This document shows, piece after piece, positions 37,652-60,663 of a stretch of 64,000 bases of DNA. The notes beneath the pieces were generated by a model. That model worked only from the letters and a program-made list of their open reading frames with translations. It ran no database searches and had not been told where the DNA came from. Positions within the stretch are counted from its first letter, which is position 1, and each line of letters opens with the position of its first letter. The stretch lies in the IMG/VR virus record IMGVR_UViG_3300025671_008697, one strand, 5' to 3'. Position numbers and translations under genes: made by a program. The stretch comes from a virus. Lineage: Duplodnaviria > Caudoviricetes.

Positions 37652-38659
37652 GTGAGAGTATGTGATTGGATCCCCCAATATCTGCGTTCACAAGGAGTAG
37701 AACGTGTTCATGGCTTAATGGGCGGCGGTGCAAGCGGACTCAATGATGGATTTATTAAAGCAGGAATGCCTTATATTTGCTACCATCATGAGCAAGGTGC
37801 TGGACATGCTGCCATTGGTGAAACAAAGTTTACTGGCAAAGTCAGTGTAGTAAATCCTACCACCGGTTGTGCTGGTACTAACTGCGCTACCAGCGTGCTT
37901 AATGCTTGGCAAGACAGTGTGCCTGTAATCTTTATCAGCGGCAACGTTAGACTTGATGCCTGTAGTGGATATATCAACGAGCAACGTGGTATACAATTAC
38001 GCAAGTATGGCGTACAAGAACACCACATTGTGGACACGTATGCTACAATGACTAAATGGAGCGTGTTTGTTACAGATGTACGAGATGTTGCTTATACACT
38101 AGAACGTGCAATGTGGTTAGCACAGGAAGGCAGACCTGGTCCTGTTTGGATTGACATCCCCAGCGATATACAGAACGCTCCAATGCCAGAAGATGTTAAA
38201 CATTTCGAACCTCCTGCTAGTGCCAAACTTCCTGTAGACTTCGAGTTTGTAAAAAAATCTATAGAAATGAGCGAACGTCCGCTTATACTTGCGGGCTACG
38301 GTATTAGACAGAGCCAAACAGTTGACTTGTTCAATGAATTTATTGAACGATATGAAATACCATTTGCCAGTACGTATGGTGCAAGGGATTATACTCCTGG
38401 CAACCACCATTACAGCATGGGCACAGTAGGCATTAAAGGCAGTCGTGCAGGTAACTTTGCAGTACAAAATTGTGATTTATTGTTAATATTAGGTTGCAGT
38501 CTTGGCAGTAGTGTAGTAGGATATGATCCTAAACAGTTCAGTCCCTATAGTTACAAGATTATGATAGACATAGACAACAACGAATTGAACAAGGATATTG
38601 TGTCAATCGATGCTAGATATCTTTGTGGACTAGAAAAGTTTTTTGGAGCAATGCTATGA
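37652..38659 (+). CDS. ThDP-dependent enzyme (acetolactate synthase/YerE-like), N-terminal and central domains
   Basis: 'HHEQGAGHAA', 'TTGCAGTN', 'GRPGPVWIDIP.D.Q', 'G..G.RAGNFAVQNCDLLL'. Confidence 0.88.
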   Translation: MRVCDWIPQYLRSQGVERVHGLMGGGASGLNDGFIKAGMPYICYHHEQGAGHAAIGETKFTGKVSVVNPTTGCAGTNCATSVLNAWQDSVPVIFISGNVRLDACSGYINEQRGIQLRKYGVQEHHIVDTYATMTKWSVFVTDVRDVAYTLERAMWLAQEGRPGPVWIDIPSDIQNAPMPEDVKHFEPPASAKLPVDFEFVKKSIEMSERPLILAGYGIRQSQTVDLFNEFIERYEIPFASTYGARDYTPGNHHYSMGTVGIKGSRAGNFAVQNCDLLLILGCSLGSSVVGYDPKQFSPYSYKIMIDIDNNELNKDIVSIDARYLCGLEKFFGAML

Positions 38660-39405
38660 CAAGAACAGAATGGTTAGCTAAATGCCTACACTGGAAAACT
38701 AAATGGCCTGTCATGCAGCCCGAATACCGTGCTGACAATGAAACTAACTCTTTAAACATTTATGCAGTTTTAGATTGGGTTAACAAGCATAGTGATTCAA
38801 AACAAGTACTAGTAGGTGATGCTGGTAGCATTAGTTACGCAGGACCTACCGCACTGGAAGCAAAACCGGGACAACGTTTGGTATTCAGTCCTGCACAAGC
38901 AGACATGGGCTGGGCAGTACCTGGTGCTATTGGTGTTGAACTAAACAATGGTGCAGGTAGAGGAACAATATGCATTACCGGCGATGGCAGTTTTATGAGT
39001 AACTTACAGGAACTGGCTGTAATTAGAGAACATAATCTCAATGTGCAGATTGTTATCCTAAACAACGGCGGCTACCTCAGTATCAAAAATACACAAAGCA
39101 AATACTATGAAGGTCGTGTATTTGGAACTAGTGCTGGAAAAGGTCTTTGGTTCCCCGACTTTGCTAAAATAGCAGACTCATTTGGTTTTGAATATTTTCA
39201 ATTAAAGAGCAAGGACGACTTAGATCGGTTTGCATTTAGAATGAGTAAGACTGGCGGTCCTATTATATGGGACTGTGTTTGCCATATGGATCAAGAAATA
39301 TTGCCTGCACAAGGATTAAAAGATGGACGTCAGGCAGGCCTACACGACTTGGTACCATTCCTACCAGAAGAAGAACTTAAGTCGGAATTACTTGTAGATT
39401 TGTAA
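38656..39405 (+). CDS. ThDP-dependent enzyme, C-terminal ThDP-binding domain (separate gene)
   Basis: 'ADMGWAVPGAIG', 'TGDGSFMSNLQEL', 'LNNGGY.SI'; ATGA overlap with the preceding gene. Confidence 0.88.
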   Translation: MTRTEWLAKCLHWKTKWPVMQPEYRADNETNSLNIYAVLDWVNKHSDSKQVLVGDAGSISYAGPTALEAKPGQRLVFSPAQADMGWAVPGAIGVELNNGAGRGTICITGDGSFMSNLQELAVIREHNLNVQIVILNNGGYLSIKNTQSKYYEGRVFGTSAGKGLWFPDFAKIADSFGFEYFQLKSKDDLDRFAFRMSKTGGPIIWDCVCHMDQEILPAQGLKDGRQAGLHDLVPFLPEEELKSELLVDL

Positions 39406-42424: not shown

Positions 42425-43489
42425 ATGGAGCAAACTTTTCTTTACGTAGAAGACTACATCGAATTTATTTCTGGTTGGCGTACTCGTGGCGGCAAATTGT
42501 TAGGCTTGTTTCAAAATCAACAGAGTCCACTCAGCCTTGCCAGATATGATGTGCAGATTTTATCCAGTCTGGGCGAACAAACTGCACTCAGCCAGAAACC
42601 TTACACAGACAAACAGGCAGCTCTTGCAGTAAAGATTGTTACCAAGTATCGTAAACAGTTAGGCAATTTACCCGATCCTGTTTACATTCCTGAAGTGTTA
42701 GATAACTTCAGGTTAGGTATTAGACAAGTAGATAGAAGTCGCAAAATTTATATTGAAGACGATAAAATTATTGTTCGCTTTCCCTTTGATGGTTCATTGA
42801 TCGAGCAACTACGAGACTTGGCCAAACTAAGTCAAGGTGAATGTAAATGGAATCCCGTTCAAAAGGTGTGGTGTGGTGCCTTAACAGAATTTAATGTAAA
42901 CTACATTGTGGCTTTAGGTCGAGCACAACAGTTTGAAATCAGTGATGAAGTATTGGCACTGCAACAACAAATTCAAGCGGCAGAACAAACTGACTATCGC
43001 ATTGAACTGGTCCGGGATCGCGATGGGTGCTACACTATTACAAATTCAGAACAATCATTAATAGACTATTTGGAGCAACAACTTGGTAGTCACTGTTGGA
43101 CCAACTTGGTCGGATTGTGTGATTATGCACAAGTGTGCGGTTATGCGATAAGTACAGAAGTAGAACAAGAACTTGCAGACAAAGTCAAACCTGACTATTA
43201 TCGAGAAACTGTAAACTTTATTAAGAACAGAAAATTTGGCATTGCCAAAGAAGAGTTCAAACACGTTTTAGAGTATGCACGGTTGACCAACAGGTTGCCT
43301 GTGTACTACTATGATCCCACTTCATTGGATAAAACAGATACTGAAGAGATTGTTTATCTTAATATTGGAAGTCGTGATCCGGAATTAATGAATAAAATTA
43401 AACTGTTGGTAACTCATAGCAGTTTATTAATTGGTAGCAGACGTCAGGGTTGGGCGCAAAATGCAGAAAAGGTAATTGAATTACTATAA
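42425..43489 (+). CDS. Hypothetical protein upstream of UvsW
   Basis: 354 aa; segment 'IVRFPFD..LIE..R......WNP.QKVW' resembles helicase-associated (HARP-like) domains. Confidence 0.65.
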   Translation: MEQTFLYVEDYIEFISGWRTRGGKLLGLFQNQQSPLSLARYDVQILSSLGEQTALSQKPYTDKQAALAVKIVTKYRKQLGNLPDPVYIPEVLDNFRLGIRQVDRSRKIYIEDDKIIVRFPFDGSLIEQLRDLAKLSQGECKWNPVQKVWCGALTEFNVNYIVALGRAQQFEISDEVLALQQQIQAAEQTDYRIELVRDRDGCYTITNSEQSLIDYLEQQLGSHCWTNLVGLCDYAQVCGYAISTEVEQELADKVKPDYYRETVNFIKNRKFGIAKEEFKHVLEYARLTNRLPVYYYDPTSLDKTDTEEIVYLNIGSRDPELMNKIKLLVTHSSLLIGSRRQGWAQNAEKVIELL

Positions 43490-44943
43490 TGGAATGTAGA
43501 TTAATTATTCGTGACGAAGTTAATGTTAAACTGGAAGGTTTAGACTTAGTCACACGCAAAACACTGGTAAACAAATTCAAGTATGAAATACCTGGAGCAC
43601 GTTACTTGCCAGCAGTGAGACTGGGACGCTGGGATGGTAAGGTTCCCTACTTTAATTTAGGTGGCACAACCTACATCAACTTACTGCCCGACATCCTACC
43701 TGAACTTGAAAGTCGTGGCTATGACATTGAAGTAGATGATGTCCGTGACTACAGAACTACATTCGAGTTTGACAAAGTAACAGAGTCAACGTTTGCAGAT
43801 ATTGCTTGGCCCAAAGGACATCCTGCGGCAGGTGAGCCTATTGTATTACGGGATTACCAAATTGAAATTATCAATAAGTTTTTAGAAAATCCACAGTGTA
43901 TACAGGAAGTGGCCACAGGCGCAGGCAAAACTATTATGACCGCGGCGCTAAGTGCAAGTGTGGAGCAGTATGGTAGAACTATTGTTGTTGTGCCCAGTAA
44001 GAGTTTGGTCACACAGACAGAAGCAGACTATGTCAACATGGGTTTAGACGTTGGTGTGCTGTTCGGTGACCGTAAAGAATATACAAGAAAGCACACAATC
44101 TGTACTTGGCAAAGTCTAAACGCATTACTAAAAAATACACGCAACTACGAAGCAGATGTTACAATACAGGAGTTTGTGGAAGACGTAGTCTGTGTAATGG
44201 TAGACGAAGCACACAGTGCCAAAGCAGATGCACTAAAAAGTTTGCTGACCACAGTGTTTGCCCGCATACCTATTCGTTGGGGACTAACTGGTACCATACC
44301 TAAAGAAGATTTTGCTTTTCAGGCACTGAACTGTTGTATTGGTCCTGTGGTAGGAAAACTTAGTGCCAGCGAACTTCAAGAAGCAGGACACCTCAGTAAC
44401 TGTCACGTAAATATTGTACAGTTATCGGATTACGTAGAATACAAAGATTATCAAAGCGAACTGAGATATCTATTAGAAACAGATTCCAGACTAGATTACG
44501 TCAGTGAACTTGTAAACCGTATTGCAGAATCGGGCAATACATTAGTTCTTATTGACAGGGTGGGTCCTGGCAAGGAACTGGCAAGTAAAATCAACAACGC
44601 CGTTTTTGTCAGCGGCGCAACCAAAGCAAAGGATCGAAAGGACGAATATGACGAGATTGCTACTAGCACCGATAAGGTTATTGTTGCGACTTATGGTGTG
44701 GCCGCTGTGGGTATTAACATTCCTAGGATTTTCAATTTGGTTCTTGTGGAACCCGGAAAGAGCTTTGTACGTGTTATCCAGTCAATTGGCCGAGGCATTA
44801 GAAAGGCAGAAGATAAGGACTTTGTCCAGATCTGGGACATTACTTCCACCTGTAAATTTGCCAAAAGACACCTCACTAAACGAAAACAATTTTACCGAGA
44901 TGCACAGTACCCATTCGCCGTTGAGCGAGTAGATTGGCAGTAA
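43489..44943 (+). CDS. uvsW: SF2 DNA helicase UvsW
   Basis: 'LRDYQ', 'ATGAGKT', 'VDEAH', 'GLTGT', 'GINIPRI', 'IQSIGRGIR'. Confidence 0.92.
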   Translation: MECRLIIRDEVNVKLEGLDLVTRKTLVNKFKYEIPGARYLPAVRLGRWDGKVPYFNLGGTTYINLLPDILPELESRGYDIEVDDVRDYRTTFEFDKVTESTFADIAWPKGHPAAGEPIVLRDYQIEIINKFLENPQCIQEVATGAGKTIMTAALSASVEQYGRTIVVVPSKSLVTQTEADYVNMGLDVGVLFGDRKEYTRKHTICTWQSLNALLKNTRNYEADVTIQEFVEDVVCVMVDEAHSAKADALKSLLTTVFARIPIRWGLTGTIPKEDFAFQALNCCIGPVVGKLSASELQEAGHLSNCHVNIVQLSDYVEYKDYQSELRYLLETDSRLDYVSELVNRIAESGNTLVLIDRVGPGKELASKINNAVFVSGATKAKDRKDEYDEIATSTDKVIVATYGVAAVGINIPRIFNLVLVEPGKSFVRVIQSIGRGIRKAEDKDFVQIWDITSTCKFAKRHLTKRKQFYRDAQYPFAVERVDWQ

Positions 44944-46448: not shown

Positions 46449-46502
46449 ATATTGACATATTTTTATAAGAGTGTATACTTTGCGTAACACTATTAATATT
46501 AT

Positions 46503-47006
46503 ATGAGACTATTAACATTAGACAATACCAGTTACGAATTAAATGATATACCAGAAGAAGTAGATGACATACGTTTTTGCGTATTAGATAATTCAGATCC
46601 CAAAGACCCTGACTACTTTTTTATTCCTTTAATCTTTTTAGAAAGTTTTAACAGCCCTGCTCTCGTCTTAAAGATAGGCAACGCTACTATAAAAATGCCA
46701 ATTGATTGGCAACTGCTAATAGGCGAAAAGGACTTGGGCGACTTAGAAGTAGTTCCTCTTACTAGCATCAACGACAGAGGATTTAGTGCGTTTGCTTTTA
46801 ATCCATTAACAAGTTTTAGGCCAGACTTCTTTCCTGTAGAAGTTGTTGACATCTATCAGGACGTTAAGTGGTACTTTCCTAAACTAAAACCAGGACAGAT
46901 GTTGGCCGTTCCTTTAGAAACAGGCGTAGAAAAACCTATGTGTGTTTATTTTGTTAAAGACATCAGTAGGCAAAGTGAGGTTGTTAACTATACAAAAGTA
47001 TGGTAG
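46503..47006 (+). CDS. Conserved beta-rich hypothetical protein
   Basis: 167 aa; TTGACA-16-TATACT at 46452. Confidence 0.75.
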   Translation: MRLLTLDNTSYELNDIPEEVDDIRFCVLDNSDPKDPDYFFIPLIFLESFNSPALVLKIGNATIKMPIDWQLLIGEKDLGDLEVVPLTSINDRGFSAFAFNPLTSFRPDFFPVEVVDIYQDVKWYFPKLKPGQMLAVPLETGVEKPMCVYFVKDISRQSEVVNYTKVW

Positions 47007-47007
47007 T

Positions 47008-47271
47008 ATGAGCGACTTAACTGAAAGACCGTACATTTACGAATCGCCGGATGGCGGTAAAACCATATACAGGCGATATGCAGGCGAAACTGCGAGGGAG
47101 TTAATTGGTTACAAATACGAACCAACTGACCAAGAACAGTTAGAAGTTTACCGAGAAATGATGGTTTTGGCTCGGACACATCCAGGCTTGGCAGAAGAAT
47201 TAGAACGTGTTAAAATGTATTACTATCTGTTAAAGCAACAAAACAATGAAGTTTTTTGGCATCCAGTATAA
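47008..47271 (+). CDS. Hypothetical protein (start re-assigned to 47008)
   Basis: 'YIYESPDGGKTIYRR' motif. Confidence 0.7.
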   Translation: MSDLTERPYIYESPDGGKTIYRRYAGETARELIGYKYEPTDQEQLEVYREMMVLARTHPGLAEELERVKMYYYLLKQQNNEVFWHPV

Positions 47272-47735
47272 TGGACAAACTATCGATTAACAATGAAATG
47301 GCTCAGTTCGACACAAAGAACAGACAGTTCTATGACGAACTTACACCAGAAGAACAAAAGAAGTTTAGCACTTACTTGATGCTACGTTATGGTGCCAGCG
47401 TAGAGGGTAGTGCTGACTTTCAAGAATGGTACTTACGTGTAACTAACGAAAGGTTGAATGTAAACTTTTTTGATTTAAATAAACATCCTAAACTGCAATG
47501 GTTATTGGCTACCACAGTTAGTCCGGGTATGGGTCGGCAACGACATTATTGGCAGGCTGCAAAAAAGAAAGAAGGATCAAACAGTAAAGCAGTAAAGTTT
47601 TTGCAAAAGATATATCCAGAACGTAAGCAAGATGAAATAGAACTACTAGCCGCAATCAATGATACTAAGTCTTTAAAACTGTTGGCACAAGAGTCTGGCA
47701 TGACAGACCAGGACATTAAACGGGAATTAGGGTGA
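47271..47735 (+). CDS. Possible clamp-loader small subunit (gp62-like)
   Basis: 'FSTYLMLRY', 'HPKLQW.L..TVSPG.G...W' loosely match the gp62 pattern. Confidence 0.45.
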   Translation: MDKLSINNEMAQFDTKNRQFYDELTPEEQKKFSTYLMLRYGASVEGSADFQEWYLRVTNERLNVNFFDLNKHPKLQWLLATTVSPGMGRQRHYWQAAKKKEGSNSKAVKFLQKIYPERKQDEIELLAAINDTKSLKLLAQESGMTDQDIKRELG

Positions 47736-48415
47736 CGTATACCTGTAGGTATTGCAACAAAAGTTACAGTAAAGAAAGCACATTGGCTGCACATCTTTGC
47801 GAGCCCAAGCGCAGGTATCAACAACAGAATGAACAGGGAGTACAGATAGGATTTAAAGCCTATTTGAGATTTTATGAACTTACACAGGGTAGTGCAAAAC
47901 TAAAAACATATGAAGATTTTGTTGGCAGTCCTTATTATATGGCTTTTGTTAAATTCGGCAGACATCTTGTGGCAATACGTTGCATTAATACTGCCAGCTT
48001 TATTGATTGGTTATTAAAAAACAATAAAAAGATTGATCACTGGACCAAAGAGTCCATGTACACAGAGTGGATGTTAGAATACATTCGTAAAGAAAATGTT
48101 AAAGACGCATTAGAACGTGCTTTACGTGAAATGCAGTTACTAGCAGACACAGATGAAAAATTGAAGGGAAATTTTAATGACTACTTTAGATTGGCTAGCA
48201 GTAATCGTGTGGTTAAGCAAATTTGTGATTGTCGTGTCACTGCTTGGATTGTGTTTAATTGCGATAGCGGAATACATTTCCTCGAAACGCTCAACGAAGA
48301 ACAAGTCGGAATGATCTTGCCTTACATTGATCCAGACTTTTGGCAACGTCGTTTCACAGACTATGTTGCAGACACAGAGTGGGTCAAAGATATACTAGCA
48401 AAGGCAGGCCTGTGA
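47732..48415 (+). CDS. C2H2 Zn-finger-led hypothetical protein in the replication operon
   Basis: 'YTCRYCNKSY..E.TL..H.C'. Confidence 0.7.
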   Translation: MTYTCRYCNKSYSKESTLAAHLCEPKRRYQQQNEQGVQIGFKAYLRFYELTQGSAKLKTYEDFVGSPYYMAFVKFGRHLVAIRCINTASFIDWLLKNNKKIDHWTKESMYTEWMLEYIRKENVKDALERALREMQLLADTDEKLKGNFNDYFRLASSNRVVKQICDCRVTAWIVFNCDSGIHFLETLNEEQVGMILPYIDPDFWQRRFTDYVADTEWVKDILAKAGL

Positions 48416-49293
48416 TGCTAATGCCGTACTTGATATTGGAAATAGATTTTGTAGGCGGAACCCATGGTAATTTCTTAGAGTTTATTCTTAACCTGTGTTT
48501 AACGAATAAAAAATTGGGGATGCCTTTTACTCAAATAGGAACCAGTCATAAAAAAAGTTATGTGGAAAAAGCGCAGTCAGTTCACAGCGACCATTATATG
48601 ACAGAAAAAATTCCGTTTAAAGGAAATAATATTATTGTTATAGAGATTGATAAAAAAGTTAACTTACTTAATTTACAATCTATAATATTATACCGTGCTG
48701 GCGATAGAAAAATAGAAACTCACGATTTACACATCAAAACTTTTCATAAATTAAACATTAAAATGTATAAATCTCTACTTCAAAATTTATGTAAAAGTTA
48801 TAATGTAAATTTGTCCGAATTGGAACCTAACTGTCCTAGACATATTCTAAGAGAGTTTTTTAAACACGCATATAGAGATAACAGTTTATTTGGTCCGACA
48901 GACGGACAAGAAGAGTTCATTAATTCTTTAATCAAAGAAGGAAAAAAATTATATAGATTTCCAGTTTCATCGTTTTATAATTACGAAAATTTTGACAGGG
49001 AAATTAAAAACATCCAACAATTTTATAATTTTAATTTTTTAAATTATGAATATAAAGAAGAGCACCGAGAATTTTTGCATTATTTAGAATATTTCTTAAG
49101 TTTAAATATCCTACCGGATAAAATAATAAATGCAGTTGAACATGAGTTAGATCTAGAATTTGATAATTTGACTATTTTACAAGAAAGTTATATTAACGGA
49201 AATCTAGAACGTATTTTTAATAAAGAAATGCCATTTTTACAAGAAAAATATTTTATCAACACAAGACAAATTATCGATTACTTGAAAACATGA
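48415..49293 (+). CDS. AT-rich accessory protein, sulfotransferase-like N-terminus suspected
   Basis: 'IDFVGGTHGNFL'; coupled at both ends to core genes. Confidence 0.5.
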   Translation: MLMPYLILEIDFVGGTHGNFLEFILNLCLTNKKLGMPFTQIGTSHKKSYVEKAQSVHSDHYMTEKIPFKGNNIIVIEIDKKVNLLNLQSIILYRAGDRKIETHDLHIKTFHKLNIKMYKSLLQNLCKSYNVNLSELEPNCPRHILREFFKHAYRDNSLFGPTDGQEEFINSLIKEGKKLYRFPVSSFYNYENFDREIKNIQQFYNFNFLNYEYKEEHREFLHYLEYFLSLNILPDKIINAVEHELDLEFDNLTILQESYINGNLERIFNKEMPFLQEKYFINTRQIIDYLKT

Positions 49294-49871
49294 AATTTCG
49301 TTCAGACATTGACATTGACTTTGCAGACAGAACAAAGATCTTGGACATATTGCCACATACTAGTGCCAGTATAATTAAGGATGGTTCCATCTCAAAACAC
49401 AACACAGGTGTGTACTTTACAGAAATACCGCAAGATCCATTTACAGGATATGCCAGCATAGACTATGAACGAGCAGAAGATTTGGGATATTTAAAGTTAG
49501 ATTTTCTTAATGTAAACCTGTACAGTCAAGTCAAAAGCGAACAACATCTATTAGAGTTGATAGAGCAAGAACCTGAGTGGGACAAACTGTATGATAGAGC
49601 ATTCTGTGAGCAGTTAATTCACATAGGTAATCATTACGATACACTGATCAAGATGCCTGAAGCAGTTAACAGTATTCCTAGAATGGCCATGTTTATCAGT
49701 GTAATCAGACCTGCCAAACGCCACTTAATAGGACAGGCCTGGGGTGAAGTTAGGAAAACTGTGTGGCAACGTCCCGAAGACGACAGTTATTATTTTAAGC
49801 AGAGTCACGCAGTTGCTTATGCTACACTGGTAGCAGTCAACATGAATTTGCTAGGGAATTCTGCGGACTAG
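49290..49871 (+). CDS. Miniature DNA polymerase III alpha (DnaE)-like catalytic core
   Basis: 'SDIDIDF', 'KHNTGVY', 'GYLKLDFL', 'YFKQSHAVAYA' in DnaE order within 193 aa. Confidence 0.85.
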   Translation: MKFRSDIDIDFADRTKILDILPHTSASIIKDGSISKHNTGVYFTEIPQDPFTGYASIDYERAEDLGYLKLDFLNVNLYSQVKSEQHLLELIEQEPEWDKLYDRAFCEQLIHIGNHYDTLIKMPEAVNSIPRMAMFISVIRPAKRHLIGQAWGEVRKTVWQRPEDDSYYFKQSHAVAYATLVAVNMNLLGNSAD

Positions 49872-50225
49872 GGTAATACTACGGCGCTTACTGCGCTTTT
49901 GTGCATTTTCTTTTAGGCTGATTGTGGGCCCATACTTGATATCTACATCCTTGCTGATAAAAGTCTTTAAGCAGACCCTAAAAGGAGCCCAGTCTTGTTT
50001 AATGAAAAGATTTATAGGAACCATCCTATTACTTTCCCACCACCAAGTATCTGCTAGTTCCAAATAAACCTGCTTTTCTTCTTGGGTTCTTAGGATACCA
50101 TAGTCGTAGATAGTAGTAATACTGTCGTCACAATTCTGAATTATGCCTATGTATTCATTGCCGCCGTAGGTCAAAAGACTTAAAAAAGGATACTCTTCTA
50201 GTAGTTTTTGGTAGTATTCTTCCAC
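49851..50225 (-). CDS. Conserved hypothetical protein
   Basis: 124 aa; 'WWWESNR..PI..F', basic C-terminus. Confidence 0.75.
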   Translation of the reverse strand: MEEYYQKLLEEYPFLSLLTYGGNEYIGIIQNCDDSITTIYDYGILRTQEEKQVYLELADTWWWESNRMVPINLFIKQDWAPFRVCLKTFISKDVDIKYGPTISLKENAQKRSKRRSITLVRRIP

Positions 50226-55044: not shown

Positions 55045-56061
55045 ATGTTTAATACTGTACAAGACGCAGTCCTCGGTTTACTACCTCCGAAACGACGTCG
55101 TAGCCAAAGTGGTTGGTTAAGTTTCAACGCGGTCTGTTGCAGTCACAGAGGTGAATCAGCAGACACACGTCAACGTGGTGGTGTAATGACACAGCCCGAT
55201 GGTGCAGTCAGTTATCACTGCTTTAACTGTCAGTTCAAAACTGGCTACAAGCCAGGAGCGCCTTTGGGATTCAAATTCCGACGTTGGCTCAAATGGTTGG
55301 GCGCTGATGATGCAGAAGTAAACCGTTTGGTCATTGAAGCACTGAGAGTCAAAGACTTGGTGCAGCCAGAGAGCCAAGAGCCCGAACCCATAGACATAGA
55401 ATTTGAAGCCAGACAGTTGCCCAGTGAAGCCAAAAGTTTTATGGCCCTAGCAGACTTTTATGAACTCAATGAGTGGCGTGATGTGCCCACAGCCTACAAA
55501 GACAGTGTGGCCTATGTACACAGTAGAAACATAGACATGCAACGCTATGAGTTTTACTGGACTCCGGCAGTAGAACACAAACTCGGCCATAGAGTCATAG
55601 TGCCGTTTTACTATAAAAGAAAAATTGTGGGCTGGACTGCTAGAGCACTTAACAGCGGTATAAAACCCAAGTACCACAGTGACCATCCCAGCAACTTTGT
55701 GTTTAACTTGGACCAACAACTGTACGACAACAAGTTTGTCATAGTCTGTGAAGGCGTGTTTGATGCACTAGCCATAGATGGTGTGGCAGTGTTGGGCGCA
55801 GACATCACAGAGACACAGGCAGAACTGATTGAAAGTTTAGGTAGAGACATAATCGTTGTACCAGACTGGGACTCTGCAGGCAGCAAACTCATAGACAGAG
55901 CTGTAGAGTATGGATGGGCGGTAAGTTTTCCCTTATGGAGAGAACAGGCCAAAGACATCAGTGAAGCAGTTGCCAAGTATGGAAAACTGTATGTGTTAAA
56001 AGACATATTAAATAACAAACAGACAAACAATCTTAAAATAAAAATAATGAGTCGTCAATGA
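55045..56061 (+). CDS. gp61: DNA primase (T4 gp61-like)
   Basis: Zn ribbon 'CCSH...HCFNC', 'RVIVPF', TOPRIM 'CEGVFDA', 'PDWD.AG', 'KDISEA'. Confidence 0.9.
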   Translation: MFNTVQDAVLGLLPPKRRRSQSGWLSFNAVCCSHRGESADTRQRGGVMTQPDGAVSYHCFNCQFKTGYKPGAPLGFKFRRWLKWLGADDAEVNRLVIEALRVKDLVQPESQEPEPIDIEFEARQLPSEAKSFMALADFYELNEWRDVPTAYKDSVAYVHSRNIDMQRYEFYWTPAVEHKLGHRVIVPFYYKRKIVGWTARALNSGIKPKYHSDHPSNFVFNLDQQLYDNKFVIVCEGVFDALAIDGVAVLGADITETQAELIESLGRDIIVVPDWDSAGSKLIDRAVEYGWAVSFPLWREQAKDISEAVAKYGKLYVLKDILNNKQTNNLKIKIMSRQ

Positions 56062-57488
56062 GCAAAGAGTATACACCAGAACTACAGAAACTATTTTTAG
56101 AAATGGTCATGCAAAATCCTGAAAGTTATTTGAGGGTGCAGAACATTTATAACTTTGAAAACTTTGACAGAACACTACGCAGTGCTGCCAAGTTTATCAG
56201 CGAACACGTCAAAGACCATAACGCCATGCCCACTGCTGAGCAGGTCGAAGCAGTGACACAGGTACAGTTACGACCAGTACCAGACTTGCAGGACAATCAT
56301 TATGATTGGTTTATGACAGAGTTTGAAGGATTTACTCGCAAACAGGAACTGGAGCGAGCAATTCTTAAATGTGCGGACATGCTGGAAAAAGGTGACTATG
56401 ATCCAGTAGAAAAAATCATCAAAGACGCAGTGCAGATCAGTCTGACCAAGGACATGGGCACAGACTATTTTGAAGATCCCAGAGCCAGGTTAATGAAGAT
56501 CAAAAGCAACAACGGACAGGTAAGCACTGGCTGGCCCACAATGGACAAACGTTTGTTTGGTGGTATGAATCGAGGCGAACTCAACATCTTTGCAGGTGGC
56601 TCGGGTAGTGGTAAATCGTTGTTTATGCAGAACATTGCTATTAACTGGATCACACAGGGACTGAACGGTGTGTTCTTAACACTGGAACTTAGTGAAGAAC
56701 TGTGTGCTATGCGTATGGATAGTATGGTAGCAAATGTCAGTACTAAGGAGATTTTCCGAGACTTAGACACTATCGAAATTAAACTAAAGATGGTGGGCAA
56801 GAAGTCTGGTAAAATGCGTATCAAGTACATGCCAGCACAGAGCAACGTAAATCAAATACGTGCTTACCTAAAAGAACTGGAAGTGCAGACAGGACAGCGA
56901 ACAGACTTTATCATGGTAGACTACTTAGATTTGGTCATGCCAGTCAGTGCCAAAGTGTCGCCCAATGATTTGTTTGTTAAGGACAAGTATGTATCGGAAG
57001 AACTTAGAAACTTGGCTAAGGAGTTTAACATCTTAATGGTAACTGCAAGTCAGTTGAATCGTAGTGCAGTGGAAGAAATTGAATTTGACCATAGTCACAT
57101 CAGTGGTGGTATCAGTAAGATCAATACTGCTGACAACGTGTTTGGTATCTTTACAAGTCGTGCAATGCGTGAGCGTGGTAGGTATCAGATACAGTTGATG
57201 AAAACTCGTAGTTCAAGCGGTGTAGGACAGAAAGTAGACTTGGACTTTGACCTAGAGTGTTTGCGTATCACAGATCCAGGTGAAGAAGCACAGGGTACTC
57301 CGGGCAGTTTGAAGCCACAGACCGGCAGTATCATGGCACAGATCAAAGCCAAGAGCACAGTAGACGAAGATACTGATACAAAACCACAACGTGCTACAGG
57401 AACACCTGTGTGGGAACAACAACCTCAGGTAGCAGGTGAAGCACAGAGTACAAAACTCAAGCAGATGTTAGCAGGGCTTAAAAAGTAG
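56058..57488 (+). CDS. gp41: Replicative helicase (T4 gp41/DnaB-like)
   Basis: 'AGGSGSGKS', 'TLELSE', 'MVDYLD', 'TASQLNR', 'MKTR'. Confidence 0.93.
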   Translation: MSKEYTPELQKLFLEMVMQNPESYLRVQNIYNFENFDRTLRSAAKFISEHVKDHNAMPTAEQVEAVTQVQLRPVPDLQDNHYDWFMTEFEGFTRKQELERAILKCADMLEKGDYDPVEKIIKDAVQISLTKDMGTDYFEDPRARLMKIKSNNGQVSTGWPTMDKRLFGGMNRGELNIFAGGSGSGKSLFMQNIAINWITQGLNGVFLTLELSEELCAMRMDSMVANVSTKEIFRDLDTIEIKLKMVGKKSGKMRIKYMPAQSNVNQIRAYLKELEVQTGQRTDFIMVDYLDLVMPVSAKVSPNDLFVKDKYVSEELRNLAKEFNILMVTASQLNRSAVEEIEFDHSHISGGISKINTADNVFGIFTSRAMRERGRYQIQLMKTRSSSGVGQKVDLDFDLECLRITDPGEEAQGTPGSLKPQTGSIMAQIKAKSTVDEDTDTKPQRATGTPVWEQQPQVAGEAQSTKLKQMLAGLKK

Positions 57489-57492
57489 AATA

Positions 57493-58497
57493 ATGTTAAG
57501 ATATGAAGACATAAAACAAGTCCATTTAGAAATTTCTTCACTATGCAATGCTAGGTGTCCTTTATGTCCTAGAAATTTTCGTGGCTATAATTATAACGAT
57601 GGATATATTGAAAGGAATCTAACGTTAGATGACGTAAAAAAAATATTTCAAGTTGACTTTTTAAAACAATTATCTAAAATACGAATTAACGGGAATTTTG
57701 GAGATATCGTTATGAATCCAGAAGGACCAGAAATTGTCAAATATTTTAAATCTGCTAATTCTAAACTTCAAATTACTATAAGCACTAACGGAAGTGGCAG
57801 ATCTAAGAATTTTTGGCACCGGCTTGCTGAAAATGCAGAGATAGATTTTTGTTTAGATGGGCTAAAAGACACTCACACATTGTACCGGCAAAATACAGAT
57901 TGGAAAACTATTATAAAAAATGCACAACATGTTATTAAAAACAATGGTGTAGCCAACTGGAAATTTATTTTATTTGACCACAATAAACATCAAGTCGAAG
58001 AAGCAAAAAAACTAGCAATGGACCTTGGATTTAGACAATTCAAACTCGTCGATCATGGAAGGAATACGGGACCCGTTTTTGATAAAAAAGGAAATTTATC
58101 GCATGTAATTGGAAATTATAAAGGAGAGACTAGTTTTCCAATTTTGTTTCATAAGAAAAAAACAGACATGGTTCTTGTTGAAGATATTATAGAAAACAGA
58201 GAACCAAAATTTAATATAAAATGTCAAACAAAAAAAGATTCAGAAATTTATATAACATCAACTGGTGAAGTTTATCCTTGCTGTTTTACAGGATTTAGTC
58301 CTAGGACATATGGGCACGGAGAATATCATGAAGCCGTTAATCAACAGATAAAAGATTTGCTACCAAAAAATAATAATGCTTTAGAAAATACATTAGAGGA
58401 ATGCGTTAGTTGGTTTAATAAAATTCAAAATAGTTGGAAAATTCAGTCATATGAGCAGGGAAGACTTATTGTTTGTGATGATAATTGTGGATTATGA
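57493..58497 (+). CDS. Radical SAM protein with SPASM/twitch domain (AT-rich insert)
   Basis: 'CNARCPLC' CxxxCxxC, 'TNG', C-terminal 'GEVYPCC' and 'C...C'. Confidence 0.88.
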   Translation: MLRYEDIKQVHLEISSLCNARCPLCPRNFRGYNYNDGYIERNLTLDDVKKIFQVDFLKQLSKIRINGNFGDIVMNPEGPEIVKYFKSANSKLQITISTNGSGRSKNFWHRLAENAEIDFCLDGLKDTHTLYRQNTDWKTIIKNAQHVIKNNGVANWKFILFDHNKHQVEEAKKLAMDLGFRQFKLVDHGRNTGPVFDKKGNLSHVIGNYKGETSFPILFHKKKTDMVLVEDIIENREPKFNIKCQTKKDSEIYITSTGEVYPCCFTGFSPRTYGHGEYHEAVNQQIKDLLPKNNNALENTLEECVSWFNKIQNSWKIQSYEQGRLIVCDDNCGL

Positions 58498-58776: not shown

Positions 58777-59398
58777 AGACGTTATTGTAGAACAGGGTGT
58801 AGGTCAAGAACTGTGGCGTCGAGCTACACTGCGTCCTGAGCAAAAACGGGAACTCGAGCAACTTGAAACAATGTTAGTAAGATTAACAAAACTACCGTTG
58901 CAACGAGTACAAAAGAACAGTAAAGATATTTTAAAGCAATACAAAGAACTTTTGAATCGTAACGATGATTGGGAAAAAGATCCTATTGGCAGAGAAGTAG
59001 CATTAGCAAAAGCAATTAGTCCTTATTATCCGGATACGGCCGAGCAAATTATCGCTGCGTATAGTGGTGAGAAAAAAGAAATAAACAAAACGCAGCAACA
59101 GCCATCAGCCGCAGTACAGACAAAACAACCGGCACAACAAACTAGACAATCGGTTATCCCTAGAGAACAAGGATTTGTTACCACTGTGATTGCACCAACA
59201 GCAGGTGGTGATAGAAAGTTCTGGTATGATGGAAAAAACTGGAAAGAATATTTTGGGTCAAATTGGCCAAACGATCTTCAAACATCGCAATCAGTGACAG
59301 ATGACAGAGTAATTGATTACATCGCAAAACAAGTTGCATTAAAGAATACCAGTAAAGTTCCTTACGGAACAACTAAACAAACTAAAAGAAAATCATGA
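58766..59398 (+). CDS. Late hypothetical protein with MKIKDVIVE leader
   Basis: 210 aa ORF. Confidence 0.7.
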   Translation: MKIKDVIVEQGVGQELWRRATLRPEQKRELEQLETMLVRLTKLPLQRVQKNSKDILKQYKELLNRNDDWEKDPIGREVALAKAISPYYPDTAEQIIAAYSGEKKEINKTQQQPSAAVQTKQPAQQTRQSVIPREQGFVTTVIAPTAGGDRKFWYDGKNWKEYFGSNWPNDLQTSQSVTDDRVIDYIAKQVALKNTSKVPYGTTKQTKRKS

Positions 59399-60663
59399 AG
59401 TTATTTGAAATCCGTAACACGGCCCCTCGTTGGCAACTGTGCGAAGCTGCAGAAGGTAAAAATCTACACCTTGAACATATTGAGGATTTGGTATTCAACG
59501 AAGGATACTTGGGCGCACAACGTGCTTTAAACTATCTTGAAAGCCTGCGTCAAATGTTAGCAGAAGGTGCTGGCCCTGCTAGTGCTCGTATTACAGTTAA
59601 ATGGGACGGTGCTCCGGCAATTATCTGCGGCACAGATCCTGTAGATGGTCGTTTTTTTGTGGGCACTAAGTCTGTGTTTACAAAAACAGAGCCCAAGGTC
59701 TGCAAAACACCAGGAGACATTAAAAAGTTTTATGGTGATAGACCCGAACTGTCAGAAAAACTCAGCCTTGCCTTAAAGTATCTGAGCAAATTAGGCATTG
59801 GCGGTGTGCTACAGGGCGACTTAATGTTTACACCTGGTGACATTGAACAAACACAAATTGACGGTGAAGATGTCTATGTGTTTACACCCAATACTATCAG
59901 TTACGCAGTACCTGTTAACAGTGAATTAGGTCAGCGCATCGCTAGTGCCAAAATAGGAATTATTTTCCACACTGCTTATGATGGCAGCAGTCTACCAGAA
60001 ATGACTGCCAGTTTTGGCGCTGAGGTATCCGGGCTTAACCGCAGTCGTGATGTGTGGTTTGATGACGCTACATACAAAGATTTGACTGGTGTTGCCAGTT
60101 TAACACCACAAGAAAATAGACAGATTGCGTCAGTGTTACGTGCTGGTGCTACTACACTACAAAAATTACAGAAAAACAAGTTCGACGTCATCTTAGGTAA
60201 TCCAGAGTTTAGTCAGTATATCAAGCCTTTTATCAACAACATGGTCAAAGGTGGAGAACAGGTTGGAGAGCCTATTCAGTTTTTAAATGACTTCTTGGAA
60301 TTTTATCGTGGCAAGATGCAAGACCAAATCGAAAAACTAAAAGGCGGACCTGAAAGCCGAGCAGCCCAAGCACGTATTGAAAAGATCCAGCAAAACGAGC
60401 AGTTTGTGGAAGATAACACCAACACACTGCTGGGTATATTAGCAGTCTATAAACGTATTATTGAGGCAAAAATGCTGATTTTACGCAAACTACAGACTAT
60501 AGAAAGCATTGGCACTTTCTTAAAAACCGACACAGGCTATAGAGTTACCGCACCAGAAGGGTTTGTTGCCATAGGACACGATGGTGGCGCAGTTAAACTG
60601 GTAGACAGAATCGAATTTAGCCGTGAAAACTTCCTGGCCACCAAAGCCTGGAGCAAAACCTAA
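59395..60663 (+). CDS. ATP-dependent ligase-superfamily (RNA ligase-like, DUF6267-like) protein
   Basis: Motif I 'VKWDG', 'FFVGTKS', III 'LQGDLMF', IV 'PEGFV', V 'VKLV'. Confidence 0.65.
   Translation: MKLFEIRNTAPRWQLCEAAEGKNLHLEHIEDLVFNEGYLGAQRALNYLESLRQMLAEGAGPASARITVKWDGAPAIICGTDPVDGRFFVGTKSVFTKTEPKVCKTPGDIKKFYGDRPELSEKLSLALKYLSKLGIGGVLQGDLMFTPGDIEQTQIDGEDVYVFTPNTISYAVPVNSELGQRIASAKIGIIFHTAYDGSSLPEMTASFGAEVSGLNRSRDVWFDDATYKDLTGVASLTPQENRQIASVLRAGATTLQKLQKNKFDVILGNPEFSQYIKPFINNMVKGGEQVGEPIQFLNDFLEFYRGKMQDQIEKLKGGPESRAAQARIEKIQQNEQFVEDNTNTLLGILAVYKRIIEAKMLILRKLQTIESIGTFLKTDTGYRVTAPEGFVAIGHDGGAVKLVDRIEFSRENFLATKAWSKT

Follow-up and report, generated by a model that had tools for sequence, protein, structure and literature searches.

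In DnaE, the GxGRGS nucleotide-binding loop comes before the PDxDxDF strand. Cyanobacterial DnaE is a split-intein protein, in which the products of dnaE-n and dnaE-c are joined by protein trans-splicing. A split but minimal DNA polymerase III (Pol III) alpha was described in the group 2.2 jumbo phages by Iyer, Anantharaman, Krishnan, Burroughs and Aravind (2021; Viruses 13:63, PMC7824862), whose main text presents it as an enzyme that accompanies a family B polymerase, suggests that it may help in the synthesis of one strand or in repair, and argues that the minimal enzyme offers a glimpse of the ancestral form. Here, we analyzed a 64,000-nt stretch of viral DNA (IMG/VR record IMGVR_UViG_3300025671_008697; this whole stretch is called the window), in which an open reading frame (ORF) of 193 aa at 49290..49871 very probably encodes the C-terminal half (C-half) of a naturally split minimal Pol III alpha-type (C-family, Pol-beta-fold) polymerase, typical of the Rak2/121Q/PA5oct/Atu_ph07-like (group 2.2) jumbo phages.

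The ORF belongs to the same family (phrog_11778) and has the same size as the C-terminal, Mg2+- and DNA-template-binding subunit of the enzyme of Iyer et al. As in 121Q, Phosso and Atu_ph07, the gene lies between a UvsW-like helicase gene and the primase and DnaB genes, and its relatives resemble the published system in carrying the N-terminal half (N-half) at a distant locus with a co-resident family B polymerase. In contrast to the cultured members of that system, the window copy belongs to a freshwater phage that has not been cultured, and it shares no more than 49.5% identity with any cultured-phage protein. Compared with the cyanobacterial split DnaE, the system likewise derives a C-family catalytic subunit from two distant genes; however, it is minimal rather than full-length and has no intein sequences. 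Read as the C-terminal subunit of the published split enzyme, the gene therefore does not encode a whole enzyme, nor is the enzyme of a new kind, and the practical value of the analysis lies in its correct annotation as half of that enzyme rather than as a complete miniature polymerase. The recurrent fusions, the controlled co-fold and the tight linkage to a convergent 124-aa gene that are reported below were not found in the main text of Iyer et al. (2021).

Likeness of the 193-aa protein to Pol III alpha

Direct reading of the ORF confirmed that the four motifs named in the original prediction, which had been made from the sequence alone, occur in the order SDIDIDF (residues 5-11), KHNTGVY (36-42), GYLKLDFL (66-73) and YFKQSHAVAYA (168-178). 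The N-terminus reads MKFRSDIDIDF, with five residues preceding the DxD strand. The gene and its main elements are as follows:

49290..49871, + strand: gene (193 aa) of the probable C-half, the Mg2+- and template-binding half of a split minimal Pol III alpha
49305..49319, + strand: codons 6-10, D-I-D-I-D, with the catalytic aspartates D6 and D8 plus D10 on the first beta-strand (the model starts at about DnaE residue 397)
49494..49502, + strand: codons 69-71, K-L-D, with the third catalytic aspartate D71 and K69, aligned with KFD at 2hnh 553-555
49707..49718, + strand: codons 140-143, R-P-A-K, finger motif equivalent to DnaE (F)RPG by conservation and profile alignment
49794..49808, + strand: codons 169-173, F-K-Q-S-H, finger motif equivalent to DnaE FNKSH by conservation and alignment with 2hnh 756-760

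The PHROGs database was searched with the 193-aa protein and gave phrog_11778, labeled 'DNA polymerase', with an E-value of 7.6e-66 (residues 2-189 on profile positions 4-192 of 197), together with weak secondary matches to long DnaE-like profiles. The protein had no Pfam match at E <=1, including to PF07733, PF17657, PF14579, the PHP domain PF02811, and the thumb, clamp-binding and OB domains, and a single-sequence phmmer search of the PDB returned only chance matches to beta-glucosidases. A profile of 83 diverse, full-length C-half members (profile A1) matched Pol III alpha chains only in the PDB, with E-values of 8e-6 to 1e-4. When the members were searched individually, PF17657 (DNA_pol3_finger) was matched by 33 of the 83 and PF07733 by none. 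In the HMMER alignments of profile A1, K69 and D71 were placed on KFDFLG (2hnh chain positions 553 and 555), IRPA on the FRPG of ALFRPG in E. coli DnaE, and FKQSH on FNKSH (2hnh 756-760). The correspondence with DnaE landmarks that the original prediction had drawn was thus upheld by the PDB matches and alignments of the profile.

The structure predicted by AlphaFold2 for the 193-aa protein showed a predicted local distance difference test score (pLDDT) of 96.7 and a predicted template modeling score of 0.89. Upon comparison with the PDB using Foldseek, the top 15 chains were all Pol III alpha, with a probability of about 1 and E-values from 1.3e-3. Superposition placed residues 1-193 of the model on residues 397-780 of E. 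coli DnaE, so that approximately 384 residues are compressed into 193, in agreement with the earlier estimate that the motifs span about twice this length in DnaE. From the profile and fold matches, we conclude that the protein consists of the second part of the palm and a stripped finger core, from which the thumb and most of the finger insertions have been deleted. The length of 193 aa and the aligned DnaE range further indicate that no PHP, thumb, clamp-binding or OB region is present, as had been proposed. In contrast to DnaE (E. coli 2hnh, T. aquaticus 3e0d/2hpi, M. tuberculosis 5lew) and PolC (G. kaustophilus 3f2b), the protein covers only the equivalent of E. coli 397-780 at half the length and is without the PHP, thumb, (HhH)2/clamp-binding, OB and tau-binding parts. 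Among the 83 members, D6, D8, K69, D71 and P141 were invariant, and D10, H37, G40, R140, K143, K170 and H173 were at least 90% conserved.

A tblastn search found 96 phage records at >=80% coverage, every one of them a jumbo myovirus; the phages matched were Phosso (49.5% identity), Atu_ph07, the PA5oct group, the 121Q/Rak2/K64-1/GAP32/CBB group and XacN1. The genes matched encode about 190 aa and are variously labeled 'DNA polymerase', 'DnaE-like DNA polymerase III alpha' or 'hypothetical'. When 1.84 billion representatives were searched exhaustively with phmmer, 419 C-half clusters (50% identity) were obtained at E <=1e-3, with full-length members of 183-220 aa, and hundreds more C-half relatives were found in IMG/VR and the JGI metagenomes. 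The best match to the window contig was 81% in IMG/VR and 85% in the metagenome collection. Among 185,579 species genomes there was a single C-half match, 67% identical, on a 6.3-kb contig (L180, CAYVBV010000107.1) in a Polynucleobacter metagenome-assembled genome, which is probably a mis-binned phage fragment. Because this was the only match among those genomes, the C-half family is essentially confined to phages. The window stretch was present in 22 freshwater metagenome runs; these runs and the Polynucleobacter contig hint at a freshwater betaproteobacterial host.

A separate GRGS protein and its probable pairing with the C-half

The GxGRGS nucleotide-binding loop was not found in the 193-aa protein. 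Because this nucleotide-binding part of the palm is missing, the ORF is not a complete miniature DnaE, and the C-half alone is probably not an enzyme. The original statement that all catalytic landmarks are retained must therefore be corrected, since the loop is encoded by a separate gene in the relatives, and the suggestion of a repurposed stand-alone Pol-beta-fold nucleotidyltransferase found no support. This arrangement differs from that of DnaE and PolC in that the GRGS part lies on another polypeptide, and the 193-aa protein does not hold the full palm (GRGS loop, DxD and third aspartate) on one polypeptide.

To locate the missing part, whole records of relatives were searched with PF07733. 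Phosso, 121Q, Atu_ph07 and two relatives from IMG/VR (G001 and G002), one of the latter being 97% complete, each gave exactly one match above the curated cut-off. All five matches lay far from the C-half locus and covered profile positions 16-98 only. The corresponding N-half ORFs of the relatives encode 171-180 aa and end with ...GxGRGSSVxSYxLxxIGxHxxNSxxYxLxxxEFL(K)*, and this stop at EFL(K) is the point at which the C-half resumes with DIDIDF. The N-half family comprises at least 8000 clusters at 90% identity, all of 170-175 aa and all matching PF07733, and in the cultured phages the N-half and C-half share the same host-genus distribution. With these clusters and the 419 C-half clusters, the family is exceedingly common among jumbo phages from the environment.

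Natural fusions of the two halves were also found. In one of these (P0038, 375 aa), residues 10-180 correspond to the 121Q N-half from end to end (E 2e-23) and residues 190-372 to the window ORF, and the bridge between the halves is approximately 10 residues, directly before DFDID. Two further fusions from other assemblies (P0271 and P0272) are 376 aa long and 78-81% identical, and the fused form is encoded at L097:1066-2193. The fusion-bearing clusters are three in number, come from separate assemblies and are rare; they came from other searches than the word-index search for longer C-half relatives, which returned none. The nearest C-half relatives of P0271 and P0272 are 51-59% identical and split, which suggests that fusion is secondary.

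The window C-half was then co-folded with the N-half of its closest large relative. The interaction prediction score from aligned errors (ipSAE) was 0.91 in each of three runs, versus 0.00 for the best of three controls; of the pairs used for comparison, 58 of 80 solved complexes and 2 of 110 mismatched pairs attained that mark. The contact agreement was at least 95%, and the pLDDT of the partner was at least 81. In the predicted complex, N-half residues 132-145, which comprise a strand and the GRGS loop, form the surface against which the DIDID strand (residues 1-12) packs, and the C-terminus of the N-half adjoins the N-terminus of the C-half. These in silico results suggest that the two subunits may associate and rebuild one palm, and the fusions back such an association independently. 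The proposal of the original prediction that the ORF is one subunit of a fragmented C-family polymerase is accordingly supported by the N-half gene in five of five relatives, by the fusions and by the contrast between the co-fold and its controls.

Joining of the two chains by intein trans-splicing, as in cyanobacteria, was considered and rejected: the N-halves stop at EFL(K)*, the C-half starts with MKFRSDIDIDF, and the fusions bridge the two with approximately 10 residues. Because neither end leaves room for intein segments, the assembly would be non-covalent.

The proposed enzyme and alternative explanations

Comparison of sequences and structures shows that the C-half contributes the beta-strands with the metal-binding residues D6, D8 and D71 and with K69, as well as a much reduced finger module bearing R140/K143 and K170/H173. 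On the reading that we prefer, a separate protein of approximately 171 aa would bring in the helices ahead of these strands, one more strand and the GxGRGS triphosphate-binding loop, and the chains would join non-covalently and without an intein, completing the palm beta-sheet across their interface; the relatives, the fusions and the co-fold all point to this arrangement. The resulting heterodimer of approximately 365 aa, with no PHP, thumb, clamp-binding or OB region, could carry out two-metal, template-directed nucleotide addition, presumably with low processivity, and might serve as an accessory polymerase in repair, gap filling or the synthesis of one strand beside the family B replicase. 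It would be the smallest known catalytic core of a bacterial-type replicase, with about 365 residues in two chains versus more than 1100 in DnaE, and no single-chain C-family polymerase smaller than the rare natural fusions of 375 aa would be known. As such, the system could offer a natural minimal model for C-family polymerase catalysis.

Several points weigh against this interpretation. No N-half was detected in the 64,000-nt window by tblastn with three N-halves or by a scan for the GRGS motif. The N-half used in the co-fold was taken from a relative whose own C-half is 79% identical to that of the window, and the co-fold score may echo the likeness to solved structures of intact DnaE. How primer-template DNA would be held by an enzyme with neither a thumb nor a clamp-binding module is puzzling, and no biochemical or genetic work on any member was found in the literature after Iyer et al. 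(2021).

The alternative that survives best keeps the two halves as one enzyme and assigns it another Pol-beta-fold nucleotidyltransferase activity, for example that of a template-independent terminal transferase or tailing enzyme or that of an enzyme producing a nucleotide signal or modification. The Pol-beta fold serves diverse functions, none of the thumb, (HhH)2/clamp-binding and OB modules for DNA binding is present, and this group of phages already has a full family B replicase. The Foldseek results also included weak rows for the nucleotidyltransferases Cid1 and MenT, with E-values above 0.6, below the leading Pol III alpha chains. We consider such an enzyme improbable.

A self-sufficient 193-aa miniature DnaE, acting as a stand-alone polymerase or nucleotidyltransferase, is far less credible. 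It retains all three catalytic aspartates and the finger motifs without variation, and the lone protein gave a confident fold in silico. However, the protein starts five residues before the DxD and so lacks the beginning of the palm with the GRGS loop, near-complete relatives all encode these parts in a separate conserved gene, the two genes co-occur and are sometimes fused, and in the co-fold the exposed DIDID strand is where the partner sits.

The split polymerase half is also favored by the selection on the gene. Of 160 environmental loci, 153 carry intact ORFs of 183-204 aa, the other seven being cut by contig ends, and internal stops occur in none of them; every one of the 153 intact ORFs has both DxDxD and KxD. 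The ratio of nonsynonymous to synonymous substitution rates (dN/dS) was 0.064-0.072 against the three nearest relatives, with a median of 0.096 over 210 unsaturated pairs. These values indicate purifying selection on a gene of constant length with an invariant aspartate triad, which bears out the earlier view that it is not debris. Because the protein is a piece of a large host-like enzyme, occurs in a phage with its own replicase and, in the window copy, escapes recognition by Pfam, it might be taken for decaying DnaE debris or for a decoy or inhibitor without catalytic activity that imitates part of host Pol III alpha, but the invariance of the catalytic residues in more than 80 diverse members, the dN/dS of about 0.07, the 153 intact loci of constant length without frameshift or stop and the 419 clusters rule out a pseudogene and argue against a decoy, leaving this last explanation a negligible place.

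Neighboring genes and phage context

The start of the C-half gene is coupled to the gene upstream, and its 3' end meets a gene on the opposite strand, both as had been noted originally:

49290..49293, + strand: ATGA start/stop overlap with the upstream gene, by direct sequence reading, with which public gene calls concur
49851..50225, - strand: convergent 124-aa gene (phrog_11637, E 5.5e-33), overlapping the 3' end of the C-half gene by 21 nt

The ATG at 49290 overlaps the TGA of the upstream gene at 49291-49293. The C-half gene is the last in a coupled string, in which 47256-47735 is followed through a GTGA overlap by 47732-48415, through TGATG by 48415-49293 and through ATGA by 49290-49871. 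The upstream string of small conserved genes at 46503-49293 (+) consists of phrog_11279, phrog_11758, phrog_11058 and a family-less 292-aa gene, and the last three genes are translationally coupled to the C-half. The phrog_11058 gene product has a C2H2-like zinc finger at its N-terminus. A good sigma70-like site, TTGACA-16-TATACT, was found at 46452-46479, 5' of this string; the promoter and terminator scan did not rise above chance, promoter-like sites in the region being no commoner than expected. A 267-nt salt-marsh metatranscriptome contig spans 49453-49719 with three differences, and two 151-nt contigs from RNA libraries lie in the upstream gene; these contigs are not proof of transcription because DNA can occur in such libraries.

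A homologue of the convergent gene (phrog_11637) was present at 145 of the 160 C-half loci and was adjacent and convergent at 122, and the gene also lies behind the fused single-chain form on L097. The 124-aa protein ends with the basic C-terminal tail KRSKRRSITLVRRIP. Its AlphaFold2 model had a pLDDT of 84.9, and a structure search with this model gave no convincing fold match, the sole fold likeness being a weak one to a small beta-barrel (Sm/SH3-like). It is conceivable, though rather unlikely, that this protein is a third dedicated component, either a subunit standing in for the thumb or clamp-binding region or a protein that regulates the polymerase. In that case, this minimal C-family polymerase would consist of three parts, versus two in the published enzyme.

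The window carries genes of a jumbo myovirus, including those for the tail sheath, the tube and the large terminase. The replication genes found in it are as follows:

43489-44943: UvsW-like helicase
55045-56061: primase
56058-57488: DnaB-like helicase

The gene order is shared with 121Q, Phosso and Atu_ph07 and runs from the helicase through small unknown genes, the C-half gene, the convergent small gene and structural genes to the primase and helicase. The original prediction had described the replication genes as T4-type; beside the three genes listed, a family B polymerase, of 893-1013 aa, was found in all five relatives tested but nowhere in the 64,000-nt window. Of the further DnaE fragments sought, the N-half was likewise present in five of five relatives and absent from the window, and relatives G001 and W01-W03 carried no second, PHP-less DnaE gene.

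Two adjacent, overlapping ORFs at 37652-38659 and 38623-39405 (+) match consecutive parts, positions 13-323 and 363-554, respectively, of the 568 positions of phrog_11199; a split gene, a frameshift or an error of sequencing might each account for the pair. The gene for the DnaB-like helicase is followed immediately by 57493-58497 (+), which encodes a radical SAM protein, and then at 59395-60660 (+) by a gene for a DUF6267 protein (PF19782, E 1.5e-112).
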